53,119 nucleotides of DNA, taken from positions 1-53,119 of the IMG/VR virus record IMGVR_UViG_3300044608_001820. One strand, 5' to 3'. This DNA is from a virus (lineage: Duplodnaviria > Caudoviricetes). This document shows positions 6 through 36,135 of the stretch, in pieces (the stretch's first letter is position 1; every line of letters begins with the position of its first letter). The position numbers and the translations under genes were made by a program. The notes under the pieces are model-generated. The model saw only the letters and a list, made by a program, of their open reading frames with translations, did no database searches and was not told the origin of the DNA.

Positions 6-200
6 ATGCTCTCGCTGAAGCCTGATCAGCGGGAGTTTGTTACCGACACCGTCGAGGAGGCGGTGAAGATGAGATCGGAGGGATTAGACGAGAAAGACAT
101 TGAATCCCAGCTCAAACAGGCAATTCAGATGATCGAAGGGTGGACGACCACACCTCGAATAGTTCGAAGGATCGTCCTCGGAATCTATGGCTCAAATTAG
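6..200 (+). CDS. hypothetical protein
   Basis: ORF overlapping the next gene in operon fashion. Confidence 0.5.
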   Translation: MLSLKPDQREFVTDTVEEAVKMRSEGLDEKDIESQLKQAIQMIEGWTTTPRIVRRIVLGIYGSN

Positions 201-630
201 TCGACTCGTGTGCCCCACTGCGGGGCACTTTTTAATACAGACCAAAAGAGGGAACATGCGGACCATGTGGAGATCTGTCACGAAGTTCTTGAAGCGGTCC
301 GTGCCGCTAGTGCTACGGAGGCCGAATGTGCCCGGGATGAGCTACGACGAGGCAATCTCATTCCTTGAGAACCTGTCGATCGGTGATCTCGTCAACGGAA
401 AGATTAAAATCAAGATTGATGCTTACGACTTGATCATGCTCATTGAGGCGACGAGAGTAAGGTCCGAGAGTACGATTCTCAATTCCAAAGGCGACCCGGT
501 AAAACTCCTGTCGATGTGGGGAGAGACTGACGAGTGTGGCATGGGACAGTTCGTCGAGATCAATGTGGCGCCAGGACTGAACTACTCAGCGGTGTATGAG
601 CACGTGAAAACTGTACGGACTGGGCAGTAG
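187..630 (+). CDS. hypothetical protein
   Basis: 147-aa ORF ending just before a promoter unit. Confidence 0.55.
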   Translation: MAQISRLVCPTAGHFLIQTKRGNMRTMWRSVTKFLKRSVPLVLRRPNVPGMSYDEAISFLENLSIGDLVNGKIKIKIDAYDLIMLIEATRVRSESTILNSKGDPVKLLSMWGETDECGMGQFVEINVAPGLNYSAVYEHVKTVRTGQ

Positions 631-7196: not shown

Positions 7197-8423
7197 TCAC
7201 TTGATATTCCAAATCGGTGCCATCTGATTCTCCCGCGAGATGTTATTCTGGCGGAGAATCTTGTAGGATCCGTCCTCCTTCTTCTCCGGTTCGATCCACT
7301 GACGCTGACCATCGAGAGCCGCTGCGACCTCGCGGATCCAGTCACCTGCGGTGCACGCCGGCACGTTTTGGCAAATGATGTTGATGTCCTTCGTCGGCAT
7401 TTGCACTTTCTCAGCAAAGTCAGGTGGGAATCCCATCAGTGCGAATGCTTCCGAGGTCATCAGCCAGCGGTCCTCATACGGATGCATGAGATAGGGCAAT
7501 GTCTGCCACATCAGACTACGCGTGTGATCCCATGCGAGTTTGATCGACTTATCGAGGATGCAACTATCGGTCTCAAACTTGTGTTTCGCGTGGCGCAGAA
7601 ACTTATTCGTCTTCGGATCCGAGATAGCATCAATCGCGTCGTCAAACCAGTTATTCTCCTTCACGACACGAACGATCGTCGTCATTCGATCGCTTGCGAC
7701 TTCCGCCAAAATCTCTTGCTTGGTGTAGCCCTTAAACTTCGACTGGATGAATTGCCAGATGAGATCCGCACTCGGTGGCAGGTCGGTGTCGTAGTTGACT
7801 GACGCTGTCTTAGCGAAGTTGCCACTCTTGAGAAACTCGTGATATTGCTTGTACGGTCTCTTGATGTGATTAAGCACGGGAACCTTGTCGCCCTTCCACA
7901 GGAAGAAAAAGCTACGAGTTCTCTCCTGAGGTACACCGTGATTGATCGAAGAAGTCTTCACGAGACTCATCGTGTACCCGTGCTCGAATGCCAACGCGTT
8001 CAGTCGCTCCGCGAACTCCTCGCCCATTTTAGTGAATAGGGTCGGGGCATTCTCGACCATGATCGCTTTCGGCTTGAGGTACTTCACCGAGTACAGCGCC
8101 GCGTTGTGCATGTGCATGTTGCTGGGAGCCATGCACCCACGAGGATTTTTTGACTTCTCGTTTTTGCCTGTGGATTGGTTAGCTAAACTCAGTCCCGCGC
8201 AAGGAGGCAGCGAGGTGATGATGTCAACGTACTTCACCGGAAGTTGATCCATGGTGAAGTCCAGAAACGGAACATCATCCATATACTCGAGGCAGTACTT
8301 ATCGTTCGCGGCGAATGCGCTACTCCACGATGCGATCCACTCAGGCTTATTCCCCAGAGCCATCGTGGTCCCGATGACACTACCGCCCACGAGTGGAATA
8401 ATATGTCCGTGCGTATACGTCAT
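7197..8423 (-). CDS. DNA (cytosine-5)-methyltransferase family protein
   Basis: motif IV PPCAGLS, VI ENAP, VIII PQERTR, IX/X EAFALMGFP...QNVP; motif I variant IPLVGG; start trimmed to MTYTHG. Confidence 0.8.
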   Translation of the reverse strand: MTYTHGHIIPLVGGSVIGTTMALGNKPEWIASWSSAFAANDKYCLEYMDDVPFLDFTMDQLPVKYVDIITSLPPCAGLSLANQSTGKNEKSKNPRGCMAPSNMHMHNAALYSVKYLKPKAIMVENAPTLFTKMGEEFAERLNALAFEHGYTMSLVKTSSINHGVPQERTRSFFFLWKGDKVPVLNHIKRPYKQYHEFLKSGNFAKTASVNYDTDLPPSADLIWQFIQSKFKGYTKQEILAEVASDRMTTIVRVVKENNWFDDAIDAISDPKTNKFLRHAKHKFETDSCILDKSIKLAWDHTRSLMWQTLPYLMHPYEDRWLMTSEAFALMGFPPDFAEKVQMPTKDINIICQNVPACTAGDWIREVAAALDGQRQWIEPEKKEDGSYKILRQNNISRENQMAPIWNIK

Positions 8424-8474
8424 TGGTGACGTTTGCCAAAGTCCCATTCTAACAAAAGGTAGAACAAGTGAACC

Positions 8475-8532
8475 TGTGACAGTTGGAGAAGTGGCACGTA
8501 AAAAGTCACCGATCCCCGTCATGGAGTACAAT
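8475..8532 (+). promoter_or_regulatory. phage promoter P4 (degenerate LexA-like box at 8461-8474)
   Basis: GTGACAGTT-GGAG-AAGTGGCAC-N29-TACAAT. Confidence 0.7.
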
Positions 8533-8538
8533 AGATCT

Positions 8539-8742
8539 ATGAACAACCCCATTGCACGAGCTCGAGCCCTTTACGACAAGGGTTCCCGAGAGAACATCGT
8601 CCAGTTCCTGCAGGAGATGGACCCCAACGGTTCTTGGACTGACGAGGCATCTTACGCCGAAGGACTGGAGCCTCTGACCTACGATGAGGCACTCCTCGAA
8701 CTCGAGGACATGATCAAGGAACTGGAAGCCGTGCCCGCCTGA
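8539..8742 (+). CDS. hypothetical protein (probably leaderless)
   Basis: ATG 6 nt after -10; coupled to the topoisomerase gene. Confidence 0.6.
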   Translation: MNNPIARARALYDKGSRENIVQFLQEMDPNGSWTDEASYAEGLEPLTYDEALLELEDMIKELEAVPA

Positions 8743-18749: not shown

Positions 18750-18823
<74 letters not shown>

Positions 18824-18936: not shown

Positions 18937-18939
18937 TCC

Positions 18940-19086: not shown

Positions 19087-19210
19087 TTGGTAGTCGTTGT
19101 GCAGATAGCACAGAAAGACGCCAAAGGGGGTGCAACAAGGAACGTTGCATTAAACGAAAGGTCCCGTAGGCCACATCGTAGATTATCGTTGGTGGACACC
19201 TTCGCCCTGC
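19087..19210 (+). ncRNA. unassigned structured spacer RNA
   Basis: three hairpins, one with an internal GAAA bulge. Confidence 0.35.
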
Positions 19211-19212
19211 TC

Positions 19213-19285
19213 GGGGAATTAGCTCAGTTGGTAGAGCGCCTGCTTTGCAAGCAGGCTGTCAGGAGTTCGAGTCTCCTATTCTCCA
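19213..19285 (+). tRNA. tRNA-Ala(TGC)
   Basis: CCTGC-TTTGCAA-GCAGG; G3.U70. Confidence 0.95.
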
Positions 19286-19305
19286 TCGTTCCTTCGGGAA
19301 CACCC

Positions 19306-19380
19306 GCGGATGTAGCTCAGTGGTAGAGCATCTCCTTGCCAAGGAGAAAGTCGAGGGTTCGAATCCCTTCATCCGCTCCA
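19306..19380 (+). tRNA. tRNA-Gly(GCC)
   Basis: TCTCC-TTGCCAA-GGAGA; CCA. Confidence 0.95.
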
Positions 19381-19383
19381 CTT

Positions 19384-19466
19384 GGAGGGAGTCCGGTTGG
19401 TCGAGGAAAGCGTCTTGAAAACGCCTGGGTGTTAAAGCCTCACGGGTTCGATTCCTGTTCCCTCCG
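19384..19466 (+). tRNA. tRNA-Ser(TGA)
   Basis: GCGT-CTTGAAA-ACGC; variable arm. Confidence 0.85.
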
Positions 19467-19468
19467 CT

Positions 19469-19541
19469 GTGGTCGTAGCATAATGGTTAATGCGCCAGAT
19501 TGTGGATCTGGTTTATGTGAGTTCAAATCTCATCGGCCACC
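19469..19541 (+). tRNA. tRNA-His(GTG)
   Basis: CCAGA-TTGTGGA-TCTGG; C73; T at position -1. Confidence 0.9.
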
Positions 19542-19543
19542 CC

Positions 19544-19615
19544 GCTCGATTAGCTCAGTGGTAGAGCAACTGTTTCGTAAACAGTAGGTCGTCGGTTCAA
19601 GTCCGACATTGAGCT
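19544..19615 (+). tRNA. tRNA-Thr(CGT)
   Basis: ACTGT-TTCGTAA-ACAGT. Confidence 0.92.
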
Positions 19616-19632
19616 TCTGCTTTCGCAGAAAT

Positions 19633-19704
19633 GTTTCGGTAGCCAAGCGGTAAGGCGAAGGTCTGCAAAATCTTCATTCGTCGGTTCGATTCCGACCCGA
19701 AACT
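19633..19704 (+). tRNA. tRNA-Cys(GCA)
   Basis: AAGGT-CTGCAAA-ATCTT; U73. Confidence 0.92.
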
Positions 19705-19723
19705 TTGGCCGCGTGCCAAATAA

Positions 19724-19798
19724 TCTGGAGTCGCCAAGCGGTAAGGCAGCGGGTTTTGGTCCCGCCATTCGTGGGTTCGAATCCTACCTCCAGAACCA
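19724..19798 (+). tRNA. tRNA-Gln(TTG)
   Basis: GCGGG-TTTTGGT-CCCGC; CCA. Confidence 0.92.
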
Positions 19799-19800
19799 AT

Positions 19801-19874
19801 GTCCGTGTGGCGCAATTGGTAGACGCGCTACTTTGAGGTGGTAGTTGTTGGAGGTTCGAGTCCTCTCACGGACA
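19801..19874 (+). tRNA. tRNA-Leu(GAG), short variable arm
   Basis: CTACT-TTGAGGT-GGTAG. Confidence 0.88.
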
Positions 19875-19876
19875 TT

Positions 19877-19948
19877 GTCAGAATAGTGTAGTTGGAAACA
19901 CGGCGGTCTCCAAAACCGTAATCCGGGGTTCGAATCCTCGTTCTGGCG
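19877..19948 (+). tRNA. tRNA-Trp(CCA)
   Basis: GCGGT-CTCCAAA-ACCGT. Confidence 0.92.
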
Positions 19949-19952
19949 CCTT

Positions 19953-20026
19953 GCTCCCCTAGCTCAGCGGATTAGAGCGTCTGACTACGGATCAGAAGGT
20001 CGAAGGTTCGAATCCTTCGGGGAGCG
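19953..20026 (+). tRNA. tRNA-Arg(ACG)
   Basis: TCTGA-CTACGGA-TCAGA. Confidence 0.93.
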
Positions 20027-20029
20027 TGT

Positions 20030-20103
20030 GTGCCCTTAGCTCAGCGGATTAGAGCAACCGCCTTCTAAGCGGTCGGTCATAGGTTCAAATCCTATAGGGC
20101 GCG
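20030..20103 (+). tRNA. tRNA-Arg(TCT)
   Basis: ACCGC-CTTCTAA-GCGGT. Confidence 0.93.
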
Positions 20104-20107
20104 CCTT

Positions 20108-20181
20108 GAGAGATTAGCTCAGTCTGGTAGAGTACGGGTCTCATATGCCTATGGTCGGTGGTTCAAATCCACCATCTCTCA
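20108..20181 (+). tRNA. tRNA with CAT anticodon (Ile2 or elongator Met)
   Basis: GGGT-CTCATAT-GCCT; identity ambiguous. Confidence 0.8.
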
Positions 20182-20184
20182 TCC

Positions 20185-20258
20185 GCCCTCTTAGCTCAGT
20201 GGAATAGAGCATCTGGCTTCGAACCAGAAAGTCGTAGGTTCGAATCCTACAGGGGGCA
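20185..20258 (+). tRNA. tRNA-Arg(TCG)
   Basis: TCTGG-CTTCGAA-CCAGA. Confidence 0.9.
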
Positions 20259-20262
20259 CCTT

Positions 20263-20352
20263 GGAAGATTGGCCGAGTGGTTTAAGGCGACGGTTTGCTA
20301 AACCGTTGTGTCGGTAACGGCACCACTGGTTCGAATCCAGTATCTTCCGCCA
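20263..20352 (+). tRNA. tRNA-Ser(GCT)
   Basis: ACGGT-TTGCTAA-ACCGT; long variable arm; CCA. Confidence 0.93.
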
Positions 20353-20424
20353 GGGCGATTAACTCAGAGGTAGAGTACTTCCTTGACACGGAAGAAGTCA
20401 CTGGTTCGAATCCAGTATCGCCCA
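20353..20424 (+). tRNA. tRNA-Val(GAC)
   Basis: CTTCC-TTGACAC-GGAAG. Confidence 0.93.
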
Positions 20425-20426
20425 TC

Positions 20427-20499
20427 GCTTCCTTAGCTATCTGGTGAAAGCGCCCGACTCATAATCGGAATCAGGCGAGTTCGATCCTCGCAGGAAGCA
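20427..20499 (+). tRNA. tRNA with CAT anticodon (elongator Met or Ile2)
   Basis: CCGA-CTCATAA-TCGG. Confidence 0.82.
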
Positions 20500-20504
20500 C
20501 CTAA

Positions 20505-20576
20505 GGGTTATTAGCTCAGCGGTAGAGCATCCGGCTTTTAACCGGTCGGTCCCCAGTTCGAATCTGGGATGACCCA
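20505..20576 (+). tRNA. tRNA-Lys(TTT)
   Basis: CCGG-CTTTTAA-CCGG. Confidence 0.92.
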
Positions 20577-20594
20577 TCGTTCCTCACGGAACGA

Positions 20595-20799
20595 CAATCC
20601 AGTTCGGACACGGGTTCGACTCCCGTATGCTCCATTGAATAATTTTGTTGAAGTAGTTTCCCTAAGAAAGGAACTGTGACCACAAAACTATTCATCATGG
20701 GGCATAAAGGCTTTCGACGGGCTGGAGGGTTCTGAGAACAAATCTCAACAACATCGTACGTTTCGAACGCGTTGCCGTCGCCGCCTGAGCGAACAACCC
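20595..20799 (+). ncRNA. ssrA: permuted two-piece tmRNA
   Basis: acceptor piece ending ATGCTCCA (20634) precedes the coding piece GGGGCAT...TTCGAC (from 20699); tag LNNIVRFERVAVAA* at 20744-20788. Confidence 0.88.
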
Positions 20800-20851
20800 G
20801 TGACGATATCTGGGAGGGACATTTGTGCCCTCCCTTTCTCTAAGACTAACA

Positions 20852-21472
20852 ATGCCACTCCTCAATCGGGCTGACGGGAAATCGATCAATTTTATCCACA
20901 TTCCGCGCACAGGCGGAAGATTTGTCGTAGAACTTTTTCGGAGTAACGGGTTCGACTTCACCTTCCCTGAAGACCATCGATTGCACTGGTCAAAGACAGT
21001 TGATGGGCATGAGGTGATGCATTTTCATGCGGAGTTGATGACCAGATATTTGAATCTCGTTGGCATTAGATCATTTACGATCGTTAGAAATCCGATATCC
21101 AGGTTTATCTCCGCGGCTCCTGCGATGTTAGACTTGTTGCACGCGCCGCTAACTGAAATATCTCCCGAGGAGCTGGAGAAAAGTCTAAGCGCAGCCCTCG
21201 CTTTTGCGCCAAATTGGTTTAGACCTCAGCATGAGTTCATACTTCCTGGCACCTTAATTTGGAGATATGAAGATGGACTCGATGAGAAATTTTTTGATTG
21301 GTTACGCAGAGTCGTGGGGGTTTCTCTCTCATTAAATCACAACATAGCTTTGGGATCTCACCCGCATGACAGATCACACAAGCCGTATTTGCCTGAACGT
21401 CTTATACCGACTCTAAAAAAGTTTTACGCCAGAGACTTTGAGTTACTAAACTCTCGTCATAGCTACATTTAA
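20852..21472 (+). CDS. sulfotransferase family 2-like protein
   Basis: FIHIPRTGG (5'-PSB-like), FTIVRNPISRFIS (3'-PB-like), WFRPQHEF. Confidence 0.75.
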   Translation: MPLLNRADGKSINFIHIPRTGGRFVVELFRSNGFDFTFPEDHRLHWSKTVDGHEVMHFHAELMTRYLNLVGIRSFTIVRNPISRFISAAPAMLDLLHAPLTEISPEELEKSLSAALAFAPNWFRPQHEFILPGTLIWRYEDGLDEKFFDWLRRVVGVSLSLNHNIALGSHPHDRSHKPYLPERLIPTLKKFYARDFELLNSRHSYI

Positions 21473-23717: not shown

Positions 23718-23968
23718 CTGAGAACAACATCCCCAATCCCTGGGAGAACAAACCAGAGATAAACATCGGAGGATCTCCCATTTTAGACCATACGTTTACC
23801 ATCACTGGCAAACCTCTCGAACTAAAGTTACCGAACTATGTCGGTTATTGGGATGTGATTCCACCAGATGATTCTGTTCACTTTCGAATTTACAGACCCA
23901 ATCGACCGAACTTCTTTCACAGGCTAATGAACAAGTGGCTGATCGGGTGGGAGTGGAATGATACGTGA
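23714..23968 (+). CDS. hypothetical protein
   Basis: GTGA coupling. Confidence 0.55.
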   Translation: MTENNIPNPWENKPEINIGGSPILDHTFTITGKPLELKLPNYVGYWDVIPPDDSVHFRIYRPNRPNFFHRLMNKWLIGWEWNDT

Positions 23969-24594
23969 CAGCTATTCGATTCATCGGAGATGTTCACGGC
24001 AAGTGGAAACGCTATGAGAAGACTATTAAGGATGCTCCGAGGTCAATCCAAGTCGGAGACTTTGGGATCGGATTCTATAATCCTCGTACGGAAACTTATA
24101 CGCGCCCACCGTACGATAAAATGTCAAAGGGCGACCACAAGTTCATTCGAGGAAACCATGATAACCCCAAGCAGTGCCGTGATCACCCGTATTGGATCGC
24201 GGATGGGTCGCTTATTGATGAGAGTATCTTCTGCATCGGAGGAGCTAAGTCGATCGATACGCACCTTCGTACGGAAGGATGGGATTGGTGGGCGGATGAG
24301 GAGCTCAACTACTCTGAATTCCTCCAACTCATTCAGACGTACGAGGAAGCGAGACCGTCTATCGTCGTTTCTCACGACGCTCCGGAAGATATGGTGAATC
24401 ACATATTGAAGACGCGGGGCGCGTATAAGTACGACATTCCAAGTATCACACGCCAATTCTTCGACAATCTCCTGCATGTGCACAAACCGGATCTCTGGAT
24501 TCACGGACATTGGCACATCGATCACCACACGGTGTTTAAGGGCGTAGAATATATTGGTCTCGGCGAACTCTCATATGTTGATTTAGACCTCTGA
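23965..24594 (+). CDS. calcineurin-like metallophosphoesterase
   Basis: GDVHG, GDFG, GNHD, SHDAP, GHWH. Confidence 0.88.
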   Translation: MTAIRFIGDVHGKWKRYEKTIKDAPRSIQVGDFGIGFYNPRTETYTRPPYDKMSKGDHKFIRGNHDNPKQCRDHPYWIADGSLIDESIFCIGGAKSIDTHLRTEGWDWWADEELNYSEFLQLIQTYEEARPSIVVSHDAPEDMVNHILKTRGAYKYDIPSITRQFFDNLLHVHKPDLWIHGHWHIDHHTVFKGVEYIGLGELSYVDLDL

Positions 24595-25884: not shown

Positions 25885-26610
25885 ATGCTTAACGCTACTA
25901 AGTCCCCGCCTAAACAGCGGGGTGTTTTATTTTCTGACCACGAACTTGATGAACACTCAGTGGTTGTCATCGGCGACATTCACGGGTGCGCGCAGGCACT
26001 GCGAGAACTGCTGATAGAGATAATCAATACCAACTGTCAAGTCGTATTCGTAGGCGACCTAGTCGATCGCGGCACTCACTTCAAGTCCGTAGTCACTATC
26101 GTGCACTCGATGTGTACTGAACCCGAGAAGTGGGGGATCAGAAGCGCAATCTGCCTCATGGGCAACCACGAGAGAATGATTGTTGATGCCCGTAATGGAG
26201 ATGATTTCCGTCTGTGGCGTCAAAATGGCGGCCGTCTTGACGACTTTCTATTCATCTCTGACACTGACCGTTGGGAGTGGCTGAGCGGGCTGCCGCTATA
26301 CTATGAGCACCCGACAAAGATTGAGTGGGACGGCGAGAAACTCGACTTACTCGTGACGCACGGATCGGTAGCTCCCGGCGTCAGTCTCAATCAACAAGAC
26401 CCAGAGACTCTCTACTGGGGCCGGGACATTCAGGGATTCTCGCAAAATCACCTGACGGTGCATGGTCACACTATCTGTCGCCATGGCGAACCACTACAGT
26501 ACGACACTCCGACAGGAAAAGTTCTCCGGATCGACACAGGTTCATATGCCACTGGCATAGTGACCGGGGTCGCCTTTCGGGAAGTCGTTACTTCTGGCAA
26601 ATCTGAGTAA
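25885..26610 (+). CDS. PPP-family Ser/Thr phosphatase / metallophosphoesterase
   Basis: GDIHG, GDLVDRG, GNHE, HGHT, IDTG. Confidence 0.9.
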   Translation: MLNATKSPPKQRGVLFSDHELDEHSVVVIGDIHGCAQALRELLIEIINTNCQVVFVGDLVDRGTHFKSVVTIVHSMCTEPEKWGIRSAICLMGNHERMIVDARNGDDFRLWRQNGGRLDDFLFISDTDRWEWLSGLPLYYEHPTKIEWDGEKLDLLVTHGSVAPGVSLNQQDPETLYWGRDIQGFSQNHLTVHGHTICRHGEPLQYDTPTGKVLRIDTGSYATGIVTGVAFREVVTSGKSE

Positions 26611-26638
26611 AATTACAATAGGAGTCCACTTGGGTCCA

Positions 26639-27217
26639 ATGGAGACAAAGCAGATCATCTATCCCGTCAGTCGATTGCTGGCAAATCCACGAGTCTTCAT
26701 GGCGATCGCGAAAGAGTTCGAGGGACCGGACTGGGAAACAATTGCCAGCGCCTTCTACGATCTGATCGAGAATGACATTCTCAATGAGGAAGATCCTGAG
26801 GACGTGGCATTCAATGCGCCCGAAGTTTGTTTTCGACTGAAACCTGAAGCTGAGGATGTGTTACAAATCATTCTTCCGGACGGGAATGCCGTTGAGCTCC
26901 ATCCCACTGCGAGTTCGATTGATGGCGCGGAGGAATACTATTCGGCGATCCGGACTGAGGAGGAGTTCGCTATCACGTCTACGATCAACGCTCGTTTGAT
27001 TCGTGCTATTGAGGAGGCGGCTCCTGAGGTGGCTGGAGATATCGCCCTGTGCGAACCTCCTACTCCCGCAAATGAGTTCCTTCGCGACGTCGACAATGAT
27101 TGCTTTAGCGGGCAGTTTCACCTGATGTCTGACCCCGAGAAACTCTATGACTTCCGTGTGGAAGTTGTCGATCTGTCCACCGATCAGCTAAAAGCGTCGA
27201 TCCGTAGGATACAATGA
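26639..27217 (+). CDS. hypothetical acidic protein
   Basis: long ORF with an AGGAG upstream. Confidence 0.65.
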   Translation: METKQIIYPVSRLLANPRVFMAIAKEFEGPDWETIASAFYDLIENDILNEEDPEDVAFNAPEVCFRLKPEAEDVLQIILPDGNAVELHPTASSIDGAEEYYSAIRTEEEFAITSTINARLIRAIEEAAPEVAGDIALCEPPTPANEFLRDVDNDCFSGQFHLMSDPEKLYDFRVEVVDLSTDQLKASIRRIQ

Positions 27218-27229
27218 GAAGGAGCAAAT

Positions 27230-27826
27230 TTGATACTCGACCAAACCACCCGAGACCTGATGTTTTTCTCCGAAACTCCCGCTCCCTATACTCGGGATGG
27301 TTGGCTCATTCAAGAGCAACTTCCCACGGAGTGGCATATTCTCGTCGCGGCAATCTTATTAAATCAAAGCAAGCGTACCGCCGCTTGGGACGATATGCTG
27401 TGGAGGCTATTCGAAAAGTGGCCGACTGCCTCAGCCCTTTCCGTTTCCGATACTTCTCTTGAGGAGTTATTGAAACCGCAGGGTTTTTCGAACATGAAGG
27501 CTAAACGCCTTCGGCGAATGTCATCGGAGTATTTAGTGTGGGACCACAAGAATGCTCGGGATCTCTACGGTTGTGGGCAGTACGCTTACGATTCGTGGAG
27601 AGTTTTTGTTAAGGGCGACCGTCCTAAGCCACACGAGATTAACGACAAAGCCTTAGTTAAATTTCTGGAGAGGTATCATGCGGGCTGGCGAATTGGACGG
27701 CCTCTACCACCACTTTTTAGAATCAGCGAGACGCCTAAACCTCGAACAGCAGTTCGAAGAAAGGTATCGGTACTATCGACAAAGGTGTTGGGCTCGGAGA
27801 GAGTGCATCCTGGTAGCAGCAACTGA
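27230..27826 (+). CDS. HhH DNA glycosylase, MBD4-like
   Basis: WHILVAAILLNQS, LLKPQGF, LYGCGQYAYDSWRVF, DKAL. Confidence 0.8.
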   Translation: MILDQTTRDLMFFSETPAPYTRDGWLIQEQLPTEWHILVAAILLNQSKRTAAWDDMLWRLFEKWPTASALSVSDTSLEELLKPQGFSNMKAKRLRRMSSEYLVWDHKNARDLYGCGQYAYDSWRVFVKGDRPKPHEINDKALVKFLERYHAGWRIGRPLPPLFRISETPKPRTAVRRKVSVLSTKVLGSERVHPGSSN

Positions 27827-27868: not shown

Positions 27869-28699
27869 ATGCTCGACTATGAACTCACACGATTCATTGG
27901 GCGCAAGAACGCTCTCTCGAATCAAATCAAAAAACTTGAGTCGGAGATCCAAGTAAAAATCAGAAAGCTTGAGGAAGCTGCTGATAAGCTTGATGAGTCG
28001 CAGGAGCGTATCATGATCGCCATTGCCGCTTACAAGAAGCAGTGCGAGCGAGGAGCGAACACTGAGCTTCGGAGAGCGGAGCGCCGCATCAAAGAGCTCG
28101 AGAAACTTGTCGCGAACGGTGGAGGACAAGCGCGGGCGGATGTTGATCTTATGGCAGTTGCCCGTGGCCGAACCTTCGCTATCTTCGATGCGATTTTATT
28201 CAGCATCTCGAATTGGTCTACGAGCGGCGATACAGCTCCCGACTTTGAACTTGTGTCTCAGTCGATTCTGTTCCCCGTAGTCTACGAGCAGGTGATGAAT
28301 GGTCCTGAAGGATACTTACTTGACACTGTGCCAACTAGCGCATTAGAGGTTGTCAGGCGCGGACGGGAGTGGGTCAGGCACCTTCGCCAAACCTGCGAAC
28401 GTTCCCTCATCGACCCGGATGTCTGGCATCGATATCAACCCGCTGTCGTGGAGTGGTGGTTGAATGACGCGCTGCCGCTGATCTATGAGTATCGCAATCC
28501 GGAGTGGGATGATTTCGAGGCTTTCTCCCAGCAGGAGATGATCGCCTGGCGAGATTTCCCTGCAAATCGGGCACTGTCATTCCCGCTGATCTTTGACGGC
28601 ATGGAAACAGTCACTCGGTACCGCGACGAGATTCGCGAATCTTCTGGGATACCAGAATTAGATAAGAACGCGATACAAACTCGCCTCGATCCCCTATGA
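27869..28699 (+). CDS. hypothetical protein, N-terminal coiled coil
   Basis: 276-aa ORF. Confidence 0.7.
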   Translation: MLDYELTRFIGRKNALSNQIKKLESEIQVKIRKLEEAADKLDESQERIMIAIAAYKKQCERGANTELRRAERRIKELEKLVANGGGQARADVDLMAVARGRTFAIFDAILFSISNWSTSGDTAPDFELVSQSILFPVVYEQVMNGPEGYLLDTVPTSALEVVRRGREWVRHLRQTCERSLIDPDVWHRYQPAVVEWWLNDALPLIYEYRNPEWDDFEAFSQQEMIAWRDFPANRALSFPLIFDGMETVTRYRDEIRESSGIPELDKNAIQTRLDPL

Positions 28700-29476: not shown

Positions 29477-32407
29477 ATGCGAACAAAAACTTATCAGATG
29501 GTAACGTCTATGAACTTGAATGAGCAAGGTTATCCTGTACTCAACAACGATCTCCATAAAAAGCTCTTCGGTTCCGCCAGCCGCCCCGTACCTAAGAGCT
29601 TCATGCTCGAACGGTCGAGGCGGCTTCTTAGTAGGTTTGACATCCCCGTGCCGGTAGACTATCCGGATGGGATGTATGATGGTGACTTGCCATTTCCTGA
29701 ACTAATTGGTGGAAACATTGAGTCTCACTTTGAGGCTATGGCTGGGGAGTTCGTCGATGACTATAAGTCATACGCTGACCAATTCTCCACCGCAAAACTT
29801 CCAAAGATCCCTGGCTACGATGATTTCATCTTTCAGCCTGGGTGGACTCGCTATACGTTCGTAAACAACAAGTGGGTCACTGAGAAAGTCCCGTATCCTC
29901 TCGAAAAAGCATTCACGTTCGATACGGAGACCTTCGTTACTGGAGGCGCATTCCCGGTTATTGGCACTGCCTTGTCGGAGGAAGCATCGTACATTTGGCT
30001 AGCCGCCGAGATGTGTGATCCCTCTCTGCCTGTCGATGAATGGACTCAACATGACCTTATCCCACTTGGTGATGGGAACTTCATTGTCGGTCATAACATT
30101 TCCTATGACCGCGTTCGCGCTCGTGACGGCTACACGCTTGATAAAACGGAGCCTGAGAATTTCTACTTCGACACGCTCTCGGCGCACATTGCTGTCTCGG
30201 GTCTTGCGTCGGGTCAACGGTGGCTTTACGTCCTTGCCGGGAAGGATCCAGACTCCCTCACGGAGGAGGAAAAGAAGAAGCTCCGCTTCCGTCCACGATG
30301 GGCAACCGAGGGTGCGACAAACTCCCTAGTGAATGTGTATAACTTCCACGTCGCGGCCGTGCGTGAGTACTTTGGCGAGGAAGTCCACTTCATGGAGGAT
30401 GCTGATAAGGACATCCGGGATGTGTTCGTGAAGGCAACCGAGATGCATCAGTTGGCTAATCGCCGTGATCTTCTCGAGTACGCAATGCTTGACGCCTTCT
30501 ACACATCCGAGTTGTTCCAGGCTCTGTGGCGTAAGTACCTCGAGTCAACTCCTTCGAAGGTAGCACTCGCGGGCCACATGTTCCTCAATGGATCACGTAT
30601 TCCTGTCTCCACGGATTGGCCGCAATGGATCGATCAGGTGGAGAAAGTCTTCGCGAAGTACAACCGTGAGATGTCTGACATCTGTCACGAGTTGATTCAG
30701 AAGTACGTGGATGAATGGCGTGTAGAGCTCGAGAAGGATATTGCCGCCGTACAATCTGCACTGGATGGCGAAGACCGAGCTGACATCATCGCCGCAGCCG
30801 GACTCGAGAAGAAGAAAGTCGTGAAGATCACTGACGTTCTCAAAGGTCTGGATAAGAACGCGGTGTTTAATTGGACTCATCACGCTGATGCCTGGGTTCG
30901 GAAGGATCCATGGATGAGCCAACTTGATTGGACTCCACGTGGATATGCCGGGAAGTATGCCTACATGCCAAAGTGGGCGAGTAAGTATCTGGCGGATACT
31001 TCAGAGCGGATCACGACCAAAGCCCAGGTCTCTCACCTTCTGCTTAAGCTGAAGTGGGAAGACACACCGATTCAACTCACAAAGAGCAAGGGCTGGTGCT
31101 TCCGCACCGAGGAAGGAAAGCTGGAGAAGATTCCGCACCCGAAAGGCAATGGCGACAATGTTGGTATTCTCCTGTCGAAAGACTTTCTAGTCGATATGGA
31201 GAATGGTCGTCTGAGCAGTGACCTTCCCGAGGCGCGAAGGGCGCTTGATATTGCAAATGCCACATCGTATTGGACGTCAGTGCGTAAGCGTGTTCATGAC
31301 CGAATCTTCATGGATGTGGAAAATCCGTACGGGAAGAGTTGGTATATGATGATGCCGGAGATCATCGCTCACGGCACGGTGACTCGCCGAACTGTGGAGA
31401 GCCTGATGGTTACGATGTGTTCTACCAAGAAGCATCGGATTGGCACCGAGCTTAAGACTCGTATTCAGTGCCCTCCTGGCTGGAAGATCGTTGGTGCTGA
31501 CTTCGACGGTCAGGAACTTCAGATCGCTAGCATCTACGCGGATGCCTGGGAGGGAGGATTCATCGGTGCATCGCCAATGGCTCACACGGTGCTGTCCGGA
31601 TCGAAGGAAAAGGGAACGGATGCCCACACCAAGCTCGCTAAGGCAATTAACACCAACCGTGATGTTGCTAAGGGCGTGGGCTTCGCAATGCTATACGGCG
31701 CGGGTGTTCGCACCATCGCTAATACCATCAAGAAGACTTACAAGGACCGGTCCGCAGCTGAACTCCGTCAGTTCGGTAACCGAGCGCTCTCATTCAAGAA
31801 GGGTCAGAAGACTCCCGATGGTCACTATGAGGGAGGGAGTGACAGCGGCTGCTATAACTACATGGAAGGTATCGCCCTTCGCACGAAGATTCCTACGCTT
31901 CCCTGTCTCGGAACCAAGATCTCAACTGCACTCCGCCCTGCGGCAGTAGGCGATGACTTCCACACCGGTCGGATCAACTGGACTATTCAATCGTCCGGCG
32001 CTGAGATGCTTGCCGTGATCCTTACCGCCTCACATTGGTTGGCTCGTAGGTTCAAGATTCCCGCTCAGTTCATCCTCTCGATTCACGACGAGACATGGTT
32101 CATGGTCCCGGAGAAGTACGCTGAGAGCTTTGCTGTATTATTCCAGATGGCTCACCTCTACTCCTGGGCACGCTTCCAAGCAAGCGTAAAGATGAATGAT
32201 GTGCCGCTAAGCCGGGCATTCTTCTCTTCCGTGGCAATCGATGATCGGCTTCGTAAATCAGTTCGAGAGTGTACTGTGACACCCTCAAATCCCGAGGGTG
32301 CCGATGAACCCGACGGCAATGAGTATTCGATGGCTCAAATGGCGGAGCTCGGGTGGGTGAAGAAGCTTAAGACTCGAGCGGATATGGTTGCGAAGGGGTT
32401 GCTTTGA
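29477..32407 (+). CDS. DNA polymerase family A, mitochondrial Pol-gamma-like
   Basis: FDTE, VGHNISYDR, DTLSAHIAVSG, GTVTRR, VGADFDGQEL, RDVAKGVGFAMLYGAG, IHDE. Confidence 0.93.
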   Translation: MRTKTYQMVTSMNLNEQGYPVLNNDLHKKLFGSASRPVPKSFMLERSRRLLSRFDIPVPVDYPDGMYDGDLPFPELIGGNIESHFEAMAGEFVDDYKSYADQFSTAKLPKIPGYDDFIFQPGWTRYTFVNNKWVTEKVPYPLEKAFTFDTETFVTGGAFPVIGTALSEEASYIWLAAEMCDPSLPVDEWTQHDLIPLGDGNFIVGHNISYDRVRARDGYTLDKTEPENFYFDTLSAHIAVSGLASGQRWLYVLAGKDPDSLTEEEKKKLRFRPRWATEGATNSLVNVYNFHVAAVREYFGEEVHFMEDADKDIRDVFVKATEMHQLANRRDLLEYAMLDAFYTSELFQALWRKYLESTPSKVALAGHMFLNGSRIPVSTDWPQWIDQVEKVFAKYNREMSDICHELIQKYVDEWRVELEKDIAAVQSALDGEDRADIIAAAGLEKKKVVKITDVLKGLDKNAVFNWTHHADAWVRKDPWMSQLDWTPRGYAGKYAYMPKWASKYLADTSERITTKAQVSHLLLKLKWEDTPIQLTKSKGWCFRTEEGKLEKIPHPKGNGDNVGILLSKDFLVDMENGRLSSDLPEARRALDIANATSYWTSVRKRVHDRIFMDVENPYGKSWYMMMPEIIAHGTVTRRTVESLMVTMCSTKKHRIGTELKTRIQCPPGWKIVGADFDGQELQIASIYADAWEGGFIGASPMAHTVLSGSKEKGTDAHTKLAKAINTNRDVAKGVGFAMLYGAGVRTIANTIKKTYKDRSAAELRQFGNRALSFKKGQKTPDGHYEGGSDSGCYNYMEGIALRTKIPTLPCLGTKISTALRPAAVGDDFHTGRINWTIQSSGAEMLAVILTASHWLARRFKIPAQFILSIHDETWFMVPEKYAESFAVLFQMAHLYSWARFQASVKMNDVPLSRAFFSSVAIDDRLRKSVRECTVTPSNPEGADEPDGNEYSMAQMAELGWVKKLKTRADMVAKGLL

Positions 32408-32761: not shown

Positions 32762-33337
32762 ATGTCAATGCTAATCATCGTTTCTGGTCCAGACCGAGTT
32801 GGTAAGTCAACTCTCATTGATTCCATGGCTCAGGAGCTAGGAGTGGACAATACGTTCGTAGCTCACCACGGTCCTCCGCCAAAGCATAACGACAATATCT
32901 TTGACATGTACCGGGACACTCTTCAGGACTGGAGGTGGTCTAAGAAACCTTATGCGATCTTCGATAGGGCATACCCATGCAGCTATATTCTTGAGCAGCA
33001 CCGCCGCCACAATGCCGGACATTTCGAGGACATCATTGACCTGGAGATCGAGACATCCGAGGCTGTGGACTCTGTGGTTCACCTTGGCGTCTTTCGCCCA
33101 TGGTATTGGTCAGCTCCCCTGCACCTTGAGGAGATCCGAGAGGAGGAGCCTGGCGCCGCTCTATGGTACATCCGCGACCAGTACATCGCACGCATGCAGG
33201 AGCACGAGATCTATACTCAGCAGCTCCTTAACTTCTACGAGAACATTACGATGTTCCCGAACTATCAGATCCACAATCAAGATACCAATGGACGGGCGGC
33301 ACTTGCCAACTGTCGCGAAGCTCTACGTAAATCCTGA
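32762..33337 (+). CDS. dNMP/thymidylate kinase-like P-loop protein
   Basis: SGPDRVGKST, IFDR. Confidence 0.75.
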   Translation: MSMLIIVSGPDRVGKSTLIDSMAQELGVDNTFVAHHGPPPKHNDNIFDMYRDTLQDWRWSKKPYAIFDRAYPCSYILEQHRRHNAGHFEDIIDLEIETSEAVDSVVHLGVFRPWYWSAPLHLEEIREEEPGAALWYIRDQYIARMQEHEIYTQQLLNFYENITMFPNYQIHNQDTNGRAALANCREALRKS

Positions 33338-33552
33338 TGCCATTTCCTATGCCACGCGATCCTAACTTCATGCTTGAATACTGTCGAGAGTGGGTGGATG
33401 ACGCCAACTATCGATATGATCACGGAATGCGATCGATGGCACAGGAAAGTATACGAACGGCGGCACAACTATATGTTCAGTTGCCGCCGGGATTTTCTGA
33501 TTTAGAGTTTGAAAAGTATTACGAGGAAACACTCAAGAAGGTTTACGGATGA
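33337..33552 (+). CDS. hypothetical protein
   Basis: coupled ORF. Confidence 0.55.
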   Translation: MPFPMPRDPNFMLEYCREWVDDANYRYDHGMRSMAQESIRTAAQLYVQLPPGFSDLEFEKYYEETLKKVYG

Positions 33553-34457
33553 GACTACAAAGTTTGGAAGCAAAAACACAGCTTGGTCACGTTCTTCATG
33601 CCGGTGATTACGCGATTAAGCATGATAATTGGGACTATATCTACAGCGAGTATCTCTATGAAATCATGACTAACGGCGAGAAGTTCGTCGGTAGGAATGG
33701 CGAGACTCGCGCGCTCTTCGGTTGTTCAGCGAAGGTTGATCTTCGTGTTGGATTCCCGCTCACCCGCCTTCGGAAGATGCCATGGATGAATATCCTTCGG
33801 GAACTAAAGTTTGACATCGGGTTCAACACCAACGTCGAAGCTCTTGGTCCCGCTAAGCACTTCTGGGATTTTCTCGCCGATGAGAACGGTGAGCTGGGTG
33901 CCTCCGCTTACTGTCGGCAGTGGCGCCAGTGGCCACCATCATCACCGGGATACGAGATGCCTAACGAGCGACTCGTTACTGACAGGTCTATCGATCAGCT
34001 CAAAGATGTGATCGTCAAACTCATTGAGCAACCTAACACCCGTCAAGGCACTGTCATCACTCACAATCCGACTGCGATCGATCCAGCGTGCCCACCCTGT
34101 CACATTGCGATGCAGTTTGCCCCATCGGTGGATGGCTGGTTGGATCTGATGGTGCCCGCCCGGTCTAACGATATGGTTGTCGGGTTCCCGCTGGATATTG
34201 CCCGCTACGCCTTGATTCTCAAGATTGTAGCGATGAGAAGCGGTAAGGCTGCTCGTTTCGTGTACATGCCAAGCGCTAACTCGCATATCTACCAAAATTG
34301 CTATGATATTGTCGATGAGATGCTTGACCGAGAGCCTAAGCCTGAGTGTCAAGTTCGCCTCACCCGTTGCCCTGGAAGCCTCTCAGATGTAAATCTTGAG
34401 GACTTTGAGCTAACTGATTACGACCCGCATCCCGCGATTAAGATCGCAGTTAACTAA
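33549..34457 (+). CDS. thymidylate synthase-fold enzyme, probable dCMP (hydroxy)methyltransferase
   Basis: GFPL, YCRQWR, DQL, PPCH, RSNDMVVGFPLDIARY, HIY. Confidence 0.85.
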   Translation: MRLQSLEAKTQLGHVLHAGDYAIKHDNWDYIYSEYLYEIMTNGEKFVGRNGETRALFGCSAKVDLRVGFPLTRLRKMPWMNILRELKFDIGFNTNVEALGPAKHFWDFLADENGELGASAYCRQWRQWPPSSPGYEMPNERLVTDRSIDQLKDVIVKLIEQPNTRQGTVITHNPTAIDPACPPCHIAMQFAPSVDGWLDLMVPARSNDMVVGFPLDIARYALILKIVAMRSGKAARFVYMPSANSHIYQNCYDIVDEMLDREPKPECQVRLTRCPGSLSDVNLEDFELTDYDPHPAIKIAVN

Positions 34458-34500: not shown

Positions 34501-34866
34501 ATGGAAGAAACACCTAAACCCGGCGTTCGTGTCATGCGAAAGTCTCCTGAGGAAATGGCTCAGGGTGCTGCAATTCAAACGCAAAACTCTTTCGAAGACG
34601 CTGACTCCACATTCTTCACGACTCTCTCGAATGGCCGCGATGTCATTCTCCGAGAGATGACAGCGAGCGATCTGCTTTTCATCGAGAAGCTAAACACCGC
34701 CGGAGATATGGAGCGTTCGCTAAAACTCGTCGCTCGGCTCTCCACAGGGTCAGGCAAGATCACCTACGATGAGTTGCAAAAACTCAAGATGAAGGATCTT
34801 CGCAAGGTGACTGAATTGCTCGGTAAAGCCGGCGGCACTGACGAGGACGAGGACCCAAACGACTGA
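34501..34866 (+). CDS. tail assembly chaperone (G-like)
   Basis: LREMTASD...YDELQKLKMKD; ends at a slippery site. Confidence 0.7.
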   Translation: MEETPKPGVRVMRKSPEEMAQGAAIQTQNSFEDADSTFFTTLSNGRDVILREMTASDLLFIEKLNTAGDMERSLKLVARLSTGSGKITYDELQKLKMKDLRKVTELLGKAGGTDEDEDPND

Positions 34867-34921
34867 TAGTCGTCCCGCGAGAGGACTTCTCCTATGAGGT
34901 CACTCTCGCGAATGGAACGAC
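34854..34921 (+). other. programmed -1 ribosomal frameshift signal
   Basis: C CCA AAC, 8-nt spacer, strong hairpin. Confidence 0.75.
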
Positions 34922-35309
34922 TCTTATAATTCGTGAGATCATCCCGAAGGATTTCTATTTCTTCAACCTGATCGAAAACGATTTCCCCGACATCACCACA
35001 AACCACCTTGTGTTGCTTGTGATCATGCGATTGAGCGGCATGACCGAGCAGGATCTAGAAACGATCCCTTCGAGATATGTAGCCCCGCTCGGACAGTGGA
35101 TGGCGAAGAACGTTCTCGAAGAGAAGGTGATGAAAGTGGAGCAATGGCTCGAGATGGCATTTCACTTTTGTAAGCAAAGGTGGGATGCATCCATCGATTG
35201 GTTGGAACAACAACCGGTCTCTAAAATACTTCTCATGGCAAGGATTCTCTCCGACTTTGTCGAGAAACAAAAAGAGGAGACGAAACGAGCAGCACGGAGG
35301 AAAAAGTGA
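34860..35309 (+). CDS. -1 frame extension of tail chaperone (T-like part of G-T fusion)
   Basis: -1 frame open from the slip site to 35309. Confidence 0.65.
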   Translation, partial: RLIVVPREDFSYEVTLANGTTLIIREIIPKDFYFFNLIENDFPDITTNHLVLLVIMRLSGMTEQDLETIPSRYVAPLGQWMAKNVLEEKVMKVEQWLEMAFHFCKQRWDASIDWLEQQPVSKILLMARILSDFVEKQKEETKRAARRKK

Positions 35310-35701
35310 CCTTTAAGTTCAAAGGTTCCGTCCAACTTTTTAACGAGAACTGGTGGGCATCTTCAAAGAGCCCTATCGCTGATGTCCTTCAGCAGGATAA
35401 TGAGGAAGCCTGGTCGAGAGAAAGAGATCCGCAGACGGGTCAGGGCTGGAAACCTCGGAAGCAACCCACCGGTGGGTGGCCCATCCTCAGGAAGAGCGGT
35501 AAGATGCAGGATATGGTGAAGATCCGTGCCGTTGGCGCGGGAGTCTTCTCCACTAAAACGACGTCGTATGGTCCGTTCCATATGACCGGAACAAGTCGAA
35601 TGGCGGCTCGCCCTTGGCTTGGTGTTCCGCAATCATCGATGCCGAAGATGACGATGGTCGCTAAAAAGGCAATTCTCAAGGGCAAGACCCTTCGCTTTTA
35701 A
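35306..35701 (+). CDS. phage virion morphogenesis / tail completion protein
   Basis: DPQTGQGWKP, LRKSG, YGPFHMTG, ARPWLG. Confidence 0.75.
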   Translation: MTFKFKGSVQLFNENWWASSKSPIADVLQQDNEEAWSRERDPQTGQGWKPRKQPTGGWPILRKSGKMQDMVKIRAVGAGVFSTKTTSYGPFHMTGTSRMAARPWLGVPQSSMPKMTMVAKKAILKGKTLRF

Positions 35702-36135
35702 TGGCAGGAAAAGTACGCGTCTGGCAAACAGGCGACAGTTGGAATAAGCTCGCTTACGCATATTACGGCGATTCGCGAGAGTTTCGGCGCCTCATCGACC
35801 TGAATCCCGGGTTTGATATTCGAACGAATCCGGCTTCCACGGTTCCAGTGTTTATCACAGGGCCTGACGGGATCCTGGGTAAAACCGGCTCGAGCGACGC
35901 AGCGGGATCCCCGGGAACTCTCAATCAACTGAGCACTGCTCTGAATCTTTCAGGTGGATCCAACCCAAATCCCGAACAACAGGACATTGCGACCGCTATC
36001 TTCCCATGGACAAGTTTGCCCGAGTACGCTGAGAGACTCTCAGAATACACGGCTTATGCGATCCTCGAGAAGGACAGAATGAACGGGTACGGCTTAGACT
36101 CGCCACAAGCGAAAGCCGATACTCAGCGTGGTTGA
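35701..36135 (+). CDS. LysM / tail-X-like baseplate protein
   Basis: GDSWNKLAYAYYG...LIDLNP. Confidence 0.65.
   Translation: MAGKVRVWQTGDSWNKLAYAYYGDSREFRRLIDLNPGFDIRTNPASTVPVFITGPDGILGKTGSSDAAGSPGTLNQLSTALNLSGGSNPNPEQQDIATAIFPWTSLPEYAERLSEYTAYAILEKDRMNGYGLDSPQAKADTQRG

Follow-up and report, generated by a model that had tools for sequence, protein, structure and literature searches.

A stretch of 53,119 nucleotides from a tailed virus (Duplodnaviria; Caudoviricetes), deposited as IMG/VR record IMGVR_UViG_3300044608_001820 and referred to here as the window, encodes at positions 27,230 to 27,826 a small DNA glycosylase, and this locus raises the question of which base such an enzyme removes for a phage and to what end. 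In animals, MBD4 cuts out the thymine that arises from the decay of methylated cytosine, and in Escherichia coli the Dcm/Vsr pair carries T:G repair alongside a function that makes 5-methylcytosine (5mC). A preliminary description of the window had imagined a comparable partnership, in which a glycosylase resembling MBD4 rather than bacterial Nth or MutY, devoid of an iron-sulphur (Fe-S) cluster, would be the repair partner of a putative deoxycytidine monophosphate (dCMP) methylase of the thymidylate synthase (ThyA) family and/or of a C5 cytosine methyltransferase (C5-MTase). In the present study we find that the protein belongs to the MBD4 branch of the HhH-GPD superfamily, that its catalytic and base-reading residues are conserved, and that its gene recurs in separate phage lineages together with a ThyA homologue of the dCMP-using type. 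We propose, with a confidence only somewhat better than even, that the enzyme repairs deaminated C5-modified cytosines in the DNA of the window phage.

The gene and the parts of its product are the following:
27219..27224, + strand: Shine-Dalgarno sequence AAGGAG, 5 nt before the TTG start
27230..27826, + strand: coding sequence of the MBD4-type glycosylase, a stand-alone HhH-GPD protein of 198 amino acids plus stop, with a TTG start
27290..27700, + strand: glycosylase core, residues 21-157, which matches human MBD4 in structure over the entire glycosylase domain (residues 442-577)
27701..27823, + strand: C-terminal tail, residues 158-198, with 8 basic and 2 acidic residues, predicted to be disordered (predicted local distance difference test, pLDDT, 44-66)

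The upstream gene ends at 27217, just before the Shine-Dalgarno sequence, which was identified by reading the sequence and by a string check. No such element precedes the internal ATG at 27260, which was rejected as the start in favour of TTG 27230 with some uncertainty; most homologues begin in the alignment near residue 11 of the window protein, that is near this ATG, which is kept as the lesser alternative. The strings quoted in the preliminary description (WHILVAAILLNQS, LLKPQGF, LYGCGQYAYDSWRVF and DKAL) all occur in the translation of 27230..27826. Only about 20 residues lie ahead of the core, and no MBD domain was found in the protein with Pfam. The sequence contains a single cysteine, Cys115, and therefore a Cys4 motif for a 4Fe-4S cluster is impossible. 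The beginning of the tail, PLPPLFRIS, is kept in the close clade, whereas neither MBD4 nor many of the shorter family members have the tail; by way of this basic and disordered segment the protein might dock onto a partner in replication or repair.

The only Pfam match of the protein is HhH-GPD (PF00730), at 31.7 bits against a cut-off of 26.2, and PHROGs holds no family for it. A phmmer search of the PDB sequences returned 18 matches at E≤1, namely 15 MBD4 glycosylase domains (E 1.2e-16 to 4e-15), 2 endonuclease III proteins (2.8e-3) and 1 unrelated protein (0.38). When a profile of 32 family members (alignment A2) was run against the same sequences, MBD4 was recovered at 1.4e-18 (70 bits), endonuclease III at 4.7e-7 (33 bits, N-terminal half only) and MagIII at 0.088, with none of MutY, MIG, OGG1 and AlkA appearing at E≤10. 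The AlphaFold2 model, with a mean pLDDT of 83.6 and values above 90 over about residues 25-155, leads to the same neighbours: ranks 1-16 in Foldseek are all MBD4 (E 3e-7 to 6e-6; template modelling score 0.73-0.84 on the target), followed by MutY at 4e-3 and MIG at 1e-2. Superposition with VIA-align gave Z 18.1-18.7 for MBD4, with a root mean square deviation (rmsd) of 2.0-2.4 Å over 130-133 residues, against 12.4 for MIG, 12.2 for endonuclease III, 11.9 for MutY and 9.7 for both OGG1 and AlkA. MBD4 is thus separated from endonuclease III by 11 orders of magnitude in E-value with the profile and by 6 Z units in fold. It is on these hidden Markov model (HMM) and fold scores that the separation from Nth and MutY rests, the family tree being without an outgroup. 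With the mammalian MBD4 domain (PDB 3IHO, 4DK9, 4E9G, 4EVV and 6VJW) the phage core shares an all-helical HhH-GPD architecture of about 135 residues without Fe-S cluster, 29-32% identity, and a fold that matches over the whole domain (Z 18-19, rmsd about 2 Å).

The residues expected to act on DNA were located by tying the numbering to that of human MBD4 through the chain index of 3IHO (+436) and two papers on MBD4-DNA structures:
27311..27313, + strand: Gln28, equivalent in the alignment to MBD4 Gln449
27362..27376, + strand: intercalating loop Asn45-Gln46-Ser47-Lys48-Arg49, with Gln46 at the position of the Arg468 finger
27476..27487, + strand: wedge loop Pro83-Gln84-Gly85-Phe86, equivalent to MBD4 Pro505-Leu506-Gly507-Leu508 (mouse Leu480/Leu482)
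27569..27583, + strand: helix-hairpin-helix (HhH) hairpin Gly114-Cys115-Gly116 and then Tyr118, equivalent to MBD4 Tyr540
27644..27646, + strand: Asp139, the predicted catalytic aspartate, equivalent to MBD4 Asp560 (mouse Asp534)

In MBD4, Gln449 is reported to read the O2 and N3 of thymine or uracil, the mutant Q449A being dead, the backbone NH of Val448 reads O4, and Tyr540 makes a hydrogen bond to O2 (PMC3479182, PMC3458566). Ile27 takes the place of Val448 in the alignment, and Leu44-Asn45 that of Leu466-Asn467 in the intercalating loop. Across an alignment of 56 sequences, which includes the MBD-fused member P0179, Gly85, Asp139 and Leu142 are invariant and Gln28, Asn45, Gly114, Gly116 and Tyr118 are conserved in at least 90%; Asp139 is likewise invariant among the 32 sequences of the smaller alignment and is aligned with the Asp of P0179. 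The VIA-align ranges (21..153 to 442..574) require a shift of one residue, which places Asp139 on 560. A HMMER pairwise alignment had set Asp560 on Asn138 with low posterior probability, and this assignment was rejected on account of the variability of position 138 (N, K, D, S or R) as opposed to the invariance of Asp139.

Mouse MBD4 has Tyr514 at the position of the lyase lysine of hOGG1, Lys249, according to the structural work (PMC3458566). The presence of a Tyr at this position of the phage protein, together with its only one Cys, leads to the prediction of a monofunctional glycosylase. The hydrogen-bond pattern of MBD4 is described as admitting thymine, uracil and 5-hydroxymethyluracil (5hmU) and as shutting out cytosines (PMC3458566); since the base-reading residues are conserved, the predicted substrates of the phage enzyme are T, U and 5hmU opposite G.

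Donnerlittchen, AXL_1 and one JGI cluster contain relatives annotated as 'endonuclease III' or 'ENDO3c domain', and weak matches exist to the Nth equivalog of NCBIfam (TIGR01083, E 2.3e-4) as well as to the endonuclease III entries of the PDB cited above, as would be expected if the protein were an Nth-type bifunctional glycosylase/lyase for oxidised pyrimidines. The sequence already contradicts this possibility, which we regard as very improbable: the equivalog reaches 20.9 bits where the cut-off is 211.7, a Cys4 cluster is lacking, the lyase lysine (Nth Lys120) is replaced by Tyr, and the fold score lies well below that of MBD4. By both profile and fold the protein groups with MBD4 and not with endonuclease III, and the likeness to MBD4 asserted in the preliminary description, as well as the lack of an Fe-S cluster, is borne out by all these comparisons. 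As judged from sequence and modelled structure, its biochemical identity as an Fe-S-free, predicted monofunctional HhH-GPD glycosylase of the MBD4 branch is secure.

Two further genes of the window bear on the state of its cytosines:
33549..34457, + strand: ThyA homologue of the dCMP-using type (Pfam, 1.1e-54), 5.7 kb downstream of the glycosylase gene
7197..8552, - strand: C5 cytosine DNA methyltransferase (Pfam PF00145, 1.9e-19; PHROG DNA methyltransferase, 8.9e-32)

In comparison with E. coli ThyA, the window homologue has Asp216 at the position of Asn177, Cys184 as the catalytic Cys146, Asp208 as Asp169, and Cys181 at Leu143. The rule given for this family is that Asp at 177 specifies dCMP as substrate, and that Leu143 leads to a methyl product, Asp or Glu143 to a hydroxymethyl one and Asn169 to a 5-hydroxy one (PMC13326640; bioRxiv 10.1101/2024.12.05.627091). 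Thus, from Asp216 at the Asn177 position, the use of dCMP is predicted for the window ThyA. At the level of genes, this homologue and the C5-MTase support the earlier suggestion that the phage modifies cytosine. No dCMP deaminase, dihydrofolate reductase (DHFR) or pyrophosphohydrolase was found among the 47 open reading frames (ORFs) scanned in the window, a record that represents about 24% of the genome by the CheckV estimate.

The association between the glycosylase and this type of ThyA was then followed through other viruses. A tblastn search over 50,697 phage records located the glycosylase in 14 records corresponding to 9 distinct phages (S-TIM54, Xp12, Ep029, FMYAK-P1, MET13-T1, DoCa6, YB23, AXL_1 and Donnerlittchen), and IMG/VR contributed 8 loci of the close clade. 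A ThyA-family gene is present in 8 of the 10 whole records (Xp12, S-TIM54 and the 8 from IMG/VR), the two misses being fragments 12% and 16% complete. All nine ThyA genes read there, that of the window included, have the Asp, and they fall into three subfamilies (the Xp12 and window enzymes are 25% identical). The ThyA proteins of DoCa6, AXL_1 and Donnerlittchen are also of the Asp type, and in the P0077 lineage (G050 and G051) a ThyA with Asp at both 143 and 177, the signature of a hydroxymethylase, is accompanied by a C5-MTase. In total, the Asp type accounts for 14 of the 15 ThyA-family genes read in viral records with the glycosylase, and these are spread over five separate contexts. The glycosylases of these holders lie in separate parts of the family tree: they come from the window clade, from the Xp12 group and, in the case of S-TIM54, from within the P0067 lineage, with the P0077 lineage as a further context. 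As a yardstick calculated by hand, not as a formal test, we took the MetaGPA share of ThyA-bearing contigs found in the cytosine-modified fraction (109 of 412) as a stand-in for the share of the Asp type; the chance of finding Asp-type ThyA in 5 of 6 ThyA-readable contexts, which are not strictly independent, is then about 0.01.

In Xp12 and Donnerlittchen, of the Xp12 group, the gene is the first of an operon that continues with a pyrophosphohydrolase/HAD gene, the Asp-type ThyA, a dCMP deaminase and DHFR. The ThyA homologue of Xp12 makes 5-methyl-dCMP and the DNA of this phage is reported to be fully 5mC (bioRxiv 10.1101/2024.12.05.627091). The genomes of S-CBWM1, Mic1 and A-HIS1 contain neither the glycosylase nor a ThyA. 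The C5-MTase, which had been put forward as an alternative partner, is ruled out as a consistent one: it is present in only 6 of 50 holder records and absent from Xp12, and in the P0067 lineage (the largest viral lineage, of which the best 80 of 302 matching loci were taken) 3 of 80 loci have it, as does 1 of the 41 with at least 3 kb downstream.

These associations do not hold in the opposite direction. Among the 60 matches listed of 189 records, Xp12-type ThyA (at least 64% identity) is found in at least 26 distinct named phages, of which only 8 have the glycosylase and 18 do not, all 8 holders being inside this set. PaMx74, reported as an all-5mC phage (bioRxiv 10.1101/2024.12.05.627091), has the Xp12-type cluster and no glycosylase at the syntenic slot, and S-TIM5, S-TIM61 and S-TIM66 carry the Asp-type ThyA of S-TIM54 (94-100% identical) and no glycosylase. 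Weak matches of the glycosylase profile, of 14 bits, in these three phages, and a second one in S-TIM54, were considered as glycosylase remnants and discarded; they contain 3 stop codons, and those of S-TIM54 and S-TIM5 fall within the range of the C5-MTase gene. The link between the glycosylase and Asp-type ThyA is consequently one-directional, nested rather than mutual, and not universal, and the glycosylase is an accessory module, because many phages with modified cytosine do without it. The proposed analogy with Dcm/Vsr finds partial and circumstantial support: the recurrence with Asp-type ThyA in five contexts, the place of the gene in the Xp12 operon and the joint absence of both genes from S-CBWM1 speak for a repair partner, while the pairing is not a general one.

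For the window phage, a cyanophage, we envisage the following course of events, deduced by homology with MBD4 and from gene content. The Asp-type ThyA would probably furnish a C5-modified dCMP from which the DNA would be built, either 5-methyl-dCMP or possibly 5-hydroxymethyl-dCMP. Deamination of such cytosines would lead to T:G or 5hmU:G pairs, invisible to uracil-DNA glycosylase. The phage enzyme may approach from the minor groove with flipping out of the pyrimidine of the G-mispair, whose Watson-Crick edge, if that of thymine or uracil, would be read by Gln28, the backbone NH of Ile27 and Tyr118 with rejection of cytosine and its C5 derivatives, prior to the cleavage of the N-glycosidic bond by Asp139. 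Having no lyase Lys, the enzyme would leave an apurinic/apyrimidinic (AP) site to an AP endonuclease of the host, with a polymerase and a ligase. In this manner the sites might be restored before or during replication, including those damaged while the virion remained in sunlit water.

Repair of deaminated C5-modified cytosines is the simplest role for the glycosylase because dCMP modification is encoded by the phage, because glycosylase and ThyA are paired again in separate lineages and because the gene is a member of the operon in the Xp12 group; we hold it to be a little more probable than otherwise. The points that weigh against it, besides the phages with Asp-type ThyA and no glycosylase and the scarcity of C5-MTase genes in the P0067 lineage, concern the window itself as well as its relatives. 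The window is incomplete, and its ThyA has at Cys181 (34089-34091) neither the Leu of methyl formers nor the Asp or Glu of hydroxymethylases; a Cys at this position is common to the window-clade and TIM5-type ThyA proteins, and the Xp12-type ones, which are reported to be proven methylases, have Asn-Val there, the position-143 rule as published not covering these subfamilies. Glucosyltransferases are reported in all TIM5-like phages (PMC10087341), which suggests a modification based on 5-hydroxymethylcytosine (5hmC) there. In supplementary table 2 of MetaGPA, HhH-GPD is not enriched in cytosine-modified contigs (1 vs 231, p 0.74), a count that is family-wide and in which the MBD4 branch is not isolated. 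Furthermore, a ThyA-family gene was found in none of 83 loci of two other lineages within the flanks examined, and in their whole records it appears in 1 of 34, the complete 225 kb genome G009, as the canonical Asn type, the other 33 being fragments 5-53% complete; in G049 (58% complete) neither ThyA nor C5-MTase was found. An alternative is a general repair of deamination, mainly at U:G and also at T:G, by one enzyme of a phage toolkit against DNA damage with no particular connection to cytosine modification; it would be carried because virion DNA gathers deaminated cytosines under sunlight and over time, those within ultraviolet photoproducts among them, the Asp-type ThyA neighbours being then coincidental or secondary. 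The canonical Asn-type ThyA of G009 speaks for it. The P0067 lineage, with no ThyA found in its best 80 of 302 loci and almost no C5-MTase, fits such a role. In L060, the one long locus of this lineage that was annotated, the MBD4-type gene (8471-8860) lies about 1.4 kb downstream of a gene for a denV-like pyrimidine-dimer glycosylase (6636-7109), with primase/DnaB/PolA on its other side, and in another locus SNF2, AEP primase, UvrD and C5-MTase genes are near the glycosylase. The S-TIM54 glycosylase is nested in this lineage, and a 'DNA endonuclease V' is listed among the 11 genes unique to S-TIM54 (PMC10087341); these observations suggest a repair cassette that has moved between marine phages, and the related copies there resemble components of a kit for the repair of damage in general. 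MBD4 itself is described as fastest on G:U (PMC3458566). General repair agrees less well with the predominance of the Asp type (14 of 15 holder ThyA genes, five contexts) and with a gene inside the dCMP-methylase operon of the Xp12 group. In addition, the Ung of the hosts already removes uracil from U:G, and a phage enzyme would add most at T:G or 5hmU:G. We consider general repair a possible but clearly weaker account of the gene; one and the same chemistry serves both roles, which are not mutually exclusive.

The differences from MBD4 within the DNA-binding loops open another possibility, that of an MBD4 fold with a changed job, such as policing the phage's own DNA for wrong canonical bases, an attack on host DNA, or counter-defence. 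The Arg468 finger of MBD4, which occupies the space vacated by the flipped base, is not kept, Gln46 being found instead with a conserved Arg three residues later, and Phe86 replaces the intercalating Leu508 wedge. Both substitutions count against repair of deaminated modified cytosines by an enzyme working exactly like MBD4, and owing to them the handling of DNA might differ. The finger position varies throughout the family (Q, R, L, K or C), and within the close clade Arg49 hardly varies. A changed job would also be consistent with the basic C-terminal tail specific to the clade and with the long stem branch on which the clade sits (1.03 changes per column). On the other hand, the whole family, MBD-fused members included, retains the catalytic Asp as well as the Gln and Tyr that read the base, the corresponding hydrogen-bond pattern excludes cytosines in MBD4 as reported (PMC3458566), and no PADLOC defence model is matched by the protein; we deem a changed job improbable.

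As for known systems, the phage enzyme agrees with the mammalian MBD4 domain in Asp139, Gln28 and Tyr118, in the Leu-Asn of the intercalating loop, in the Pro-x-Gly of the wedge loop and in its predicted monofunctional character; it differs, besides the loop substitutions, in the lack of a conserved counterpart of Lys562, in the added basic and disordered C-terminal tail and in being encoded by a phage. MBD4 as a full protein consists of MBD, linker and glycosylase, unlike the phage protein, in which the MBD is missing. MIG (Mig.MthI, PDB 1KEA), MutY and endonuclease III belong to the same HhH-GPD superfamily, and MIG also removes T or U opposite G, but a 4Fe-4S cluster domain is found only in these enzymes and their Z values are 11.9-12.4 as compared with 18.1-18.7 for MBD4. 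The Dcm/Vsr system follows the same logic of pairing; nevertheless Vsr, whose fold is unrelated, is an endonuclease that recognises a specific sequence and nicks 5' of the T, whereas the phage glycosylase would remove the base, and methylation in the phage would be genome-wide at the nucleotide level and not site-specific. A viral comparison is offered by Xp12 gp61, with homologues in 7 further named phages where they are annotated as 'hypothetical', 'ENDO3c domain' or 'endonuclease III': these are likewise small, stand-alone proteins of phages with Asp-type ThyA, and gp61 matches with 36% identity in tblastn and with 58 bits to the window-clade profile. Gp61 nonetheless occupies a separate branch of the tree and its gene is directly in the dCMP-methylase operon, in contrast to the 5.7 kb separation in the window; the Xp12 group consists of siphoviruses of Proteobacteria, and the 5mC of Xp12 is known experimentally whereas the modification of the window phage is predicted from genes.

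The kind of enzyme is already known, and the known enzymology is unchanged by our finding; what is new is the biological context. We found no paper on stand-alone phage glycosylases of the MBD4 type or on their tie to cytosine replacement, in a search that lacked most subscription journals. The available text of the paper on the Xp12 genome and its restriction mentions a glycosylase only with regard to TDG (PMC7653180), and that of a deaminase preprint mentions only uracil-DNA glycosylase. A genome containing only 5mC deaminates to thymine, unseen by the host uracil glycosylase, and how phages cope with this is not addressed in the literature that we found. If the proposed role is true, it would constitute the first functional hypothesis for Xp12 gp61 and its homologues, with more than 1,900 metagenome cluster representatives; it would also provide a compact T:G/5hmU:G glycosylase of about 135 residues from densely methylated DNA, useful for the chemistry of methylation sequencing and for error correction, and it would bear on the origin of the glycosylase domain of eukaryotic MBD4.

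With respect to this origin, the wider family is made up mostly of stand-alone proteins. A word-indexed search gave 62 relatives with 51-99% identity, all of 127-212 amino acids, and an exhaustive profile search gave 1,979 cluster representatives at E≤1e-3, 652 at ≤1e-10 and 4 at ≤1e-30, most of them stand-alone proteins of 120-170 amino acids; the 4 matches at E≤1e-30 in a length-unrestricted search are all of 146-202 amino acids. Viral loci were absent from the results of scans made with the single proteins P0066, P0065 and P0090. A domain scan covering 88 of 150 listed matches (all the longer ones and a sample of the rest) revealed 1 MBD + HhH-GPD protein, 1 Chromo + HhH-GPD protein, 6 with F-box and 1 with PB1/Rxt3, and the MBD fusion is confined to distant members such as P0179. 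The eukaryote-type fusions in which F-box, Chromo or PB1/Rxt3 stands in place of the MBD are P0087, P0098, P0101, P0116, P0139, P0168, P0093 and P0132. In a maximum-likelihood tree of 62 rows, most of them without organism label, the window clade forms one group (100/99) and the Xp12 group another (100/99) in the opposite half, the S-TIM54 glycosylase is nested in the abundant marine P0067 lineage (100/96), and eukaryote-type fusions emerge at no fewer than two places among stand-alone proteins. We tentatively put forward, as an idea that is more doubtful than the role in the window phage, that phages replacing cytosine with 5mC or 5hmC repeatedly acquire a stand-alone MBD4-type module, as a viral and genome-wide counterpart of Dcm/Vsr, and that the domain of MBD4 and those fused to Chromo and F-box descend from a pool of phages and prokaryotes; the latter part is suggested because fused and stand-alone forms interleave in the tree. 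In the IMG/VR record G007 a glycosylase of the window clade (63% identity) occurs together with a ThyA of the TIM5 type, a combination implying that cyanophage lineages have exchanged the glycosylase. The C5-MTase gene is found no more than 2-4 kb from that of the Asp-type ThyA in G007 (34680-39570) and in S-TIM54 (142324-146233).

The surroundings of the gene in the window comprise the following features:
26630..27217, + strand: upstream neighbour, orthologue of S-CBWM1 gp75 (BLASTP 29% identity, E 3e-20), with no Pfam or PHROG family
27869..28699, + strand: downstream neighbour, orthologue of S-CBWM1 gp76 (BLASTP 25% identity, E 1e-24)
29477..32407, + strand: pol-gamma-like family A DNA polymerase (Pfam DNApol_Exo 7.5e-59, and DNA_pol_A)
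32762..33337, + strand: P-loop protein directly upstream of ThyA, perhaps a deoxynucleoside monophosphate (dNMP) kinase
16892-20576, + strand: array of 30 tRNA genes for most amino acids

The glycosylase gene belongs to a module of replication and nucleotide metabolism because of the family A polymerase at 29477..32407, whose identity is 50% with the polymerase of Synechococcus phage S-CBWM1 and 36% with its counterparts in TIM5-like cyanophages. On the gene map of S-CBWM1, gp75 and gp76 adjoin with no glycosylase between them. The assignment of the P-loop protein is a weak one, given its match to PHROG 'thymidylate kinase' at 8.5e-7 over residues 1-29 and to Pfam AAA_14 at 5e-4, below the cut-off. 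Library scans showed that the window also encodes a Mu-like portal, baseplate J and W proteins, a capsid protein, tail proteins and a GyrA-like protein.

Just upstream of the glycosylase there are two genes for calcineurin-like metallophosphoesterases (23965-24594 and 25885-26610), one of them NinI-like according to PHROGs, and a metallophosphoesterase is near the MBD4-type gene in L060 too. Parts of the tRNA array match the tRNA regions of S-PM2 and other Synechococcus phages with 87-91% identity, and the permuted 'tmRNA*' that ARAGORN placed at 20545-20965 overlaps the last tRNA and is probably spurious. Directly after the array, at 20825-21472, lies a gene of the sulfotransferase family (PHROG 'galactose-3-O-sulfotransferase', 3.9e-21; Pfam Sulfotransfer_2), an unusual auxiliary gene.

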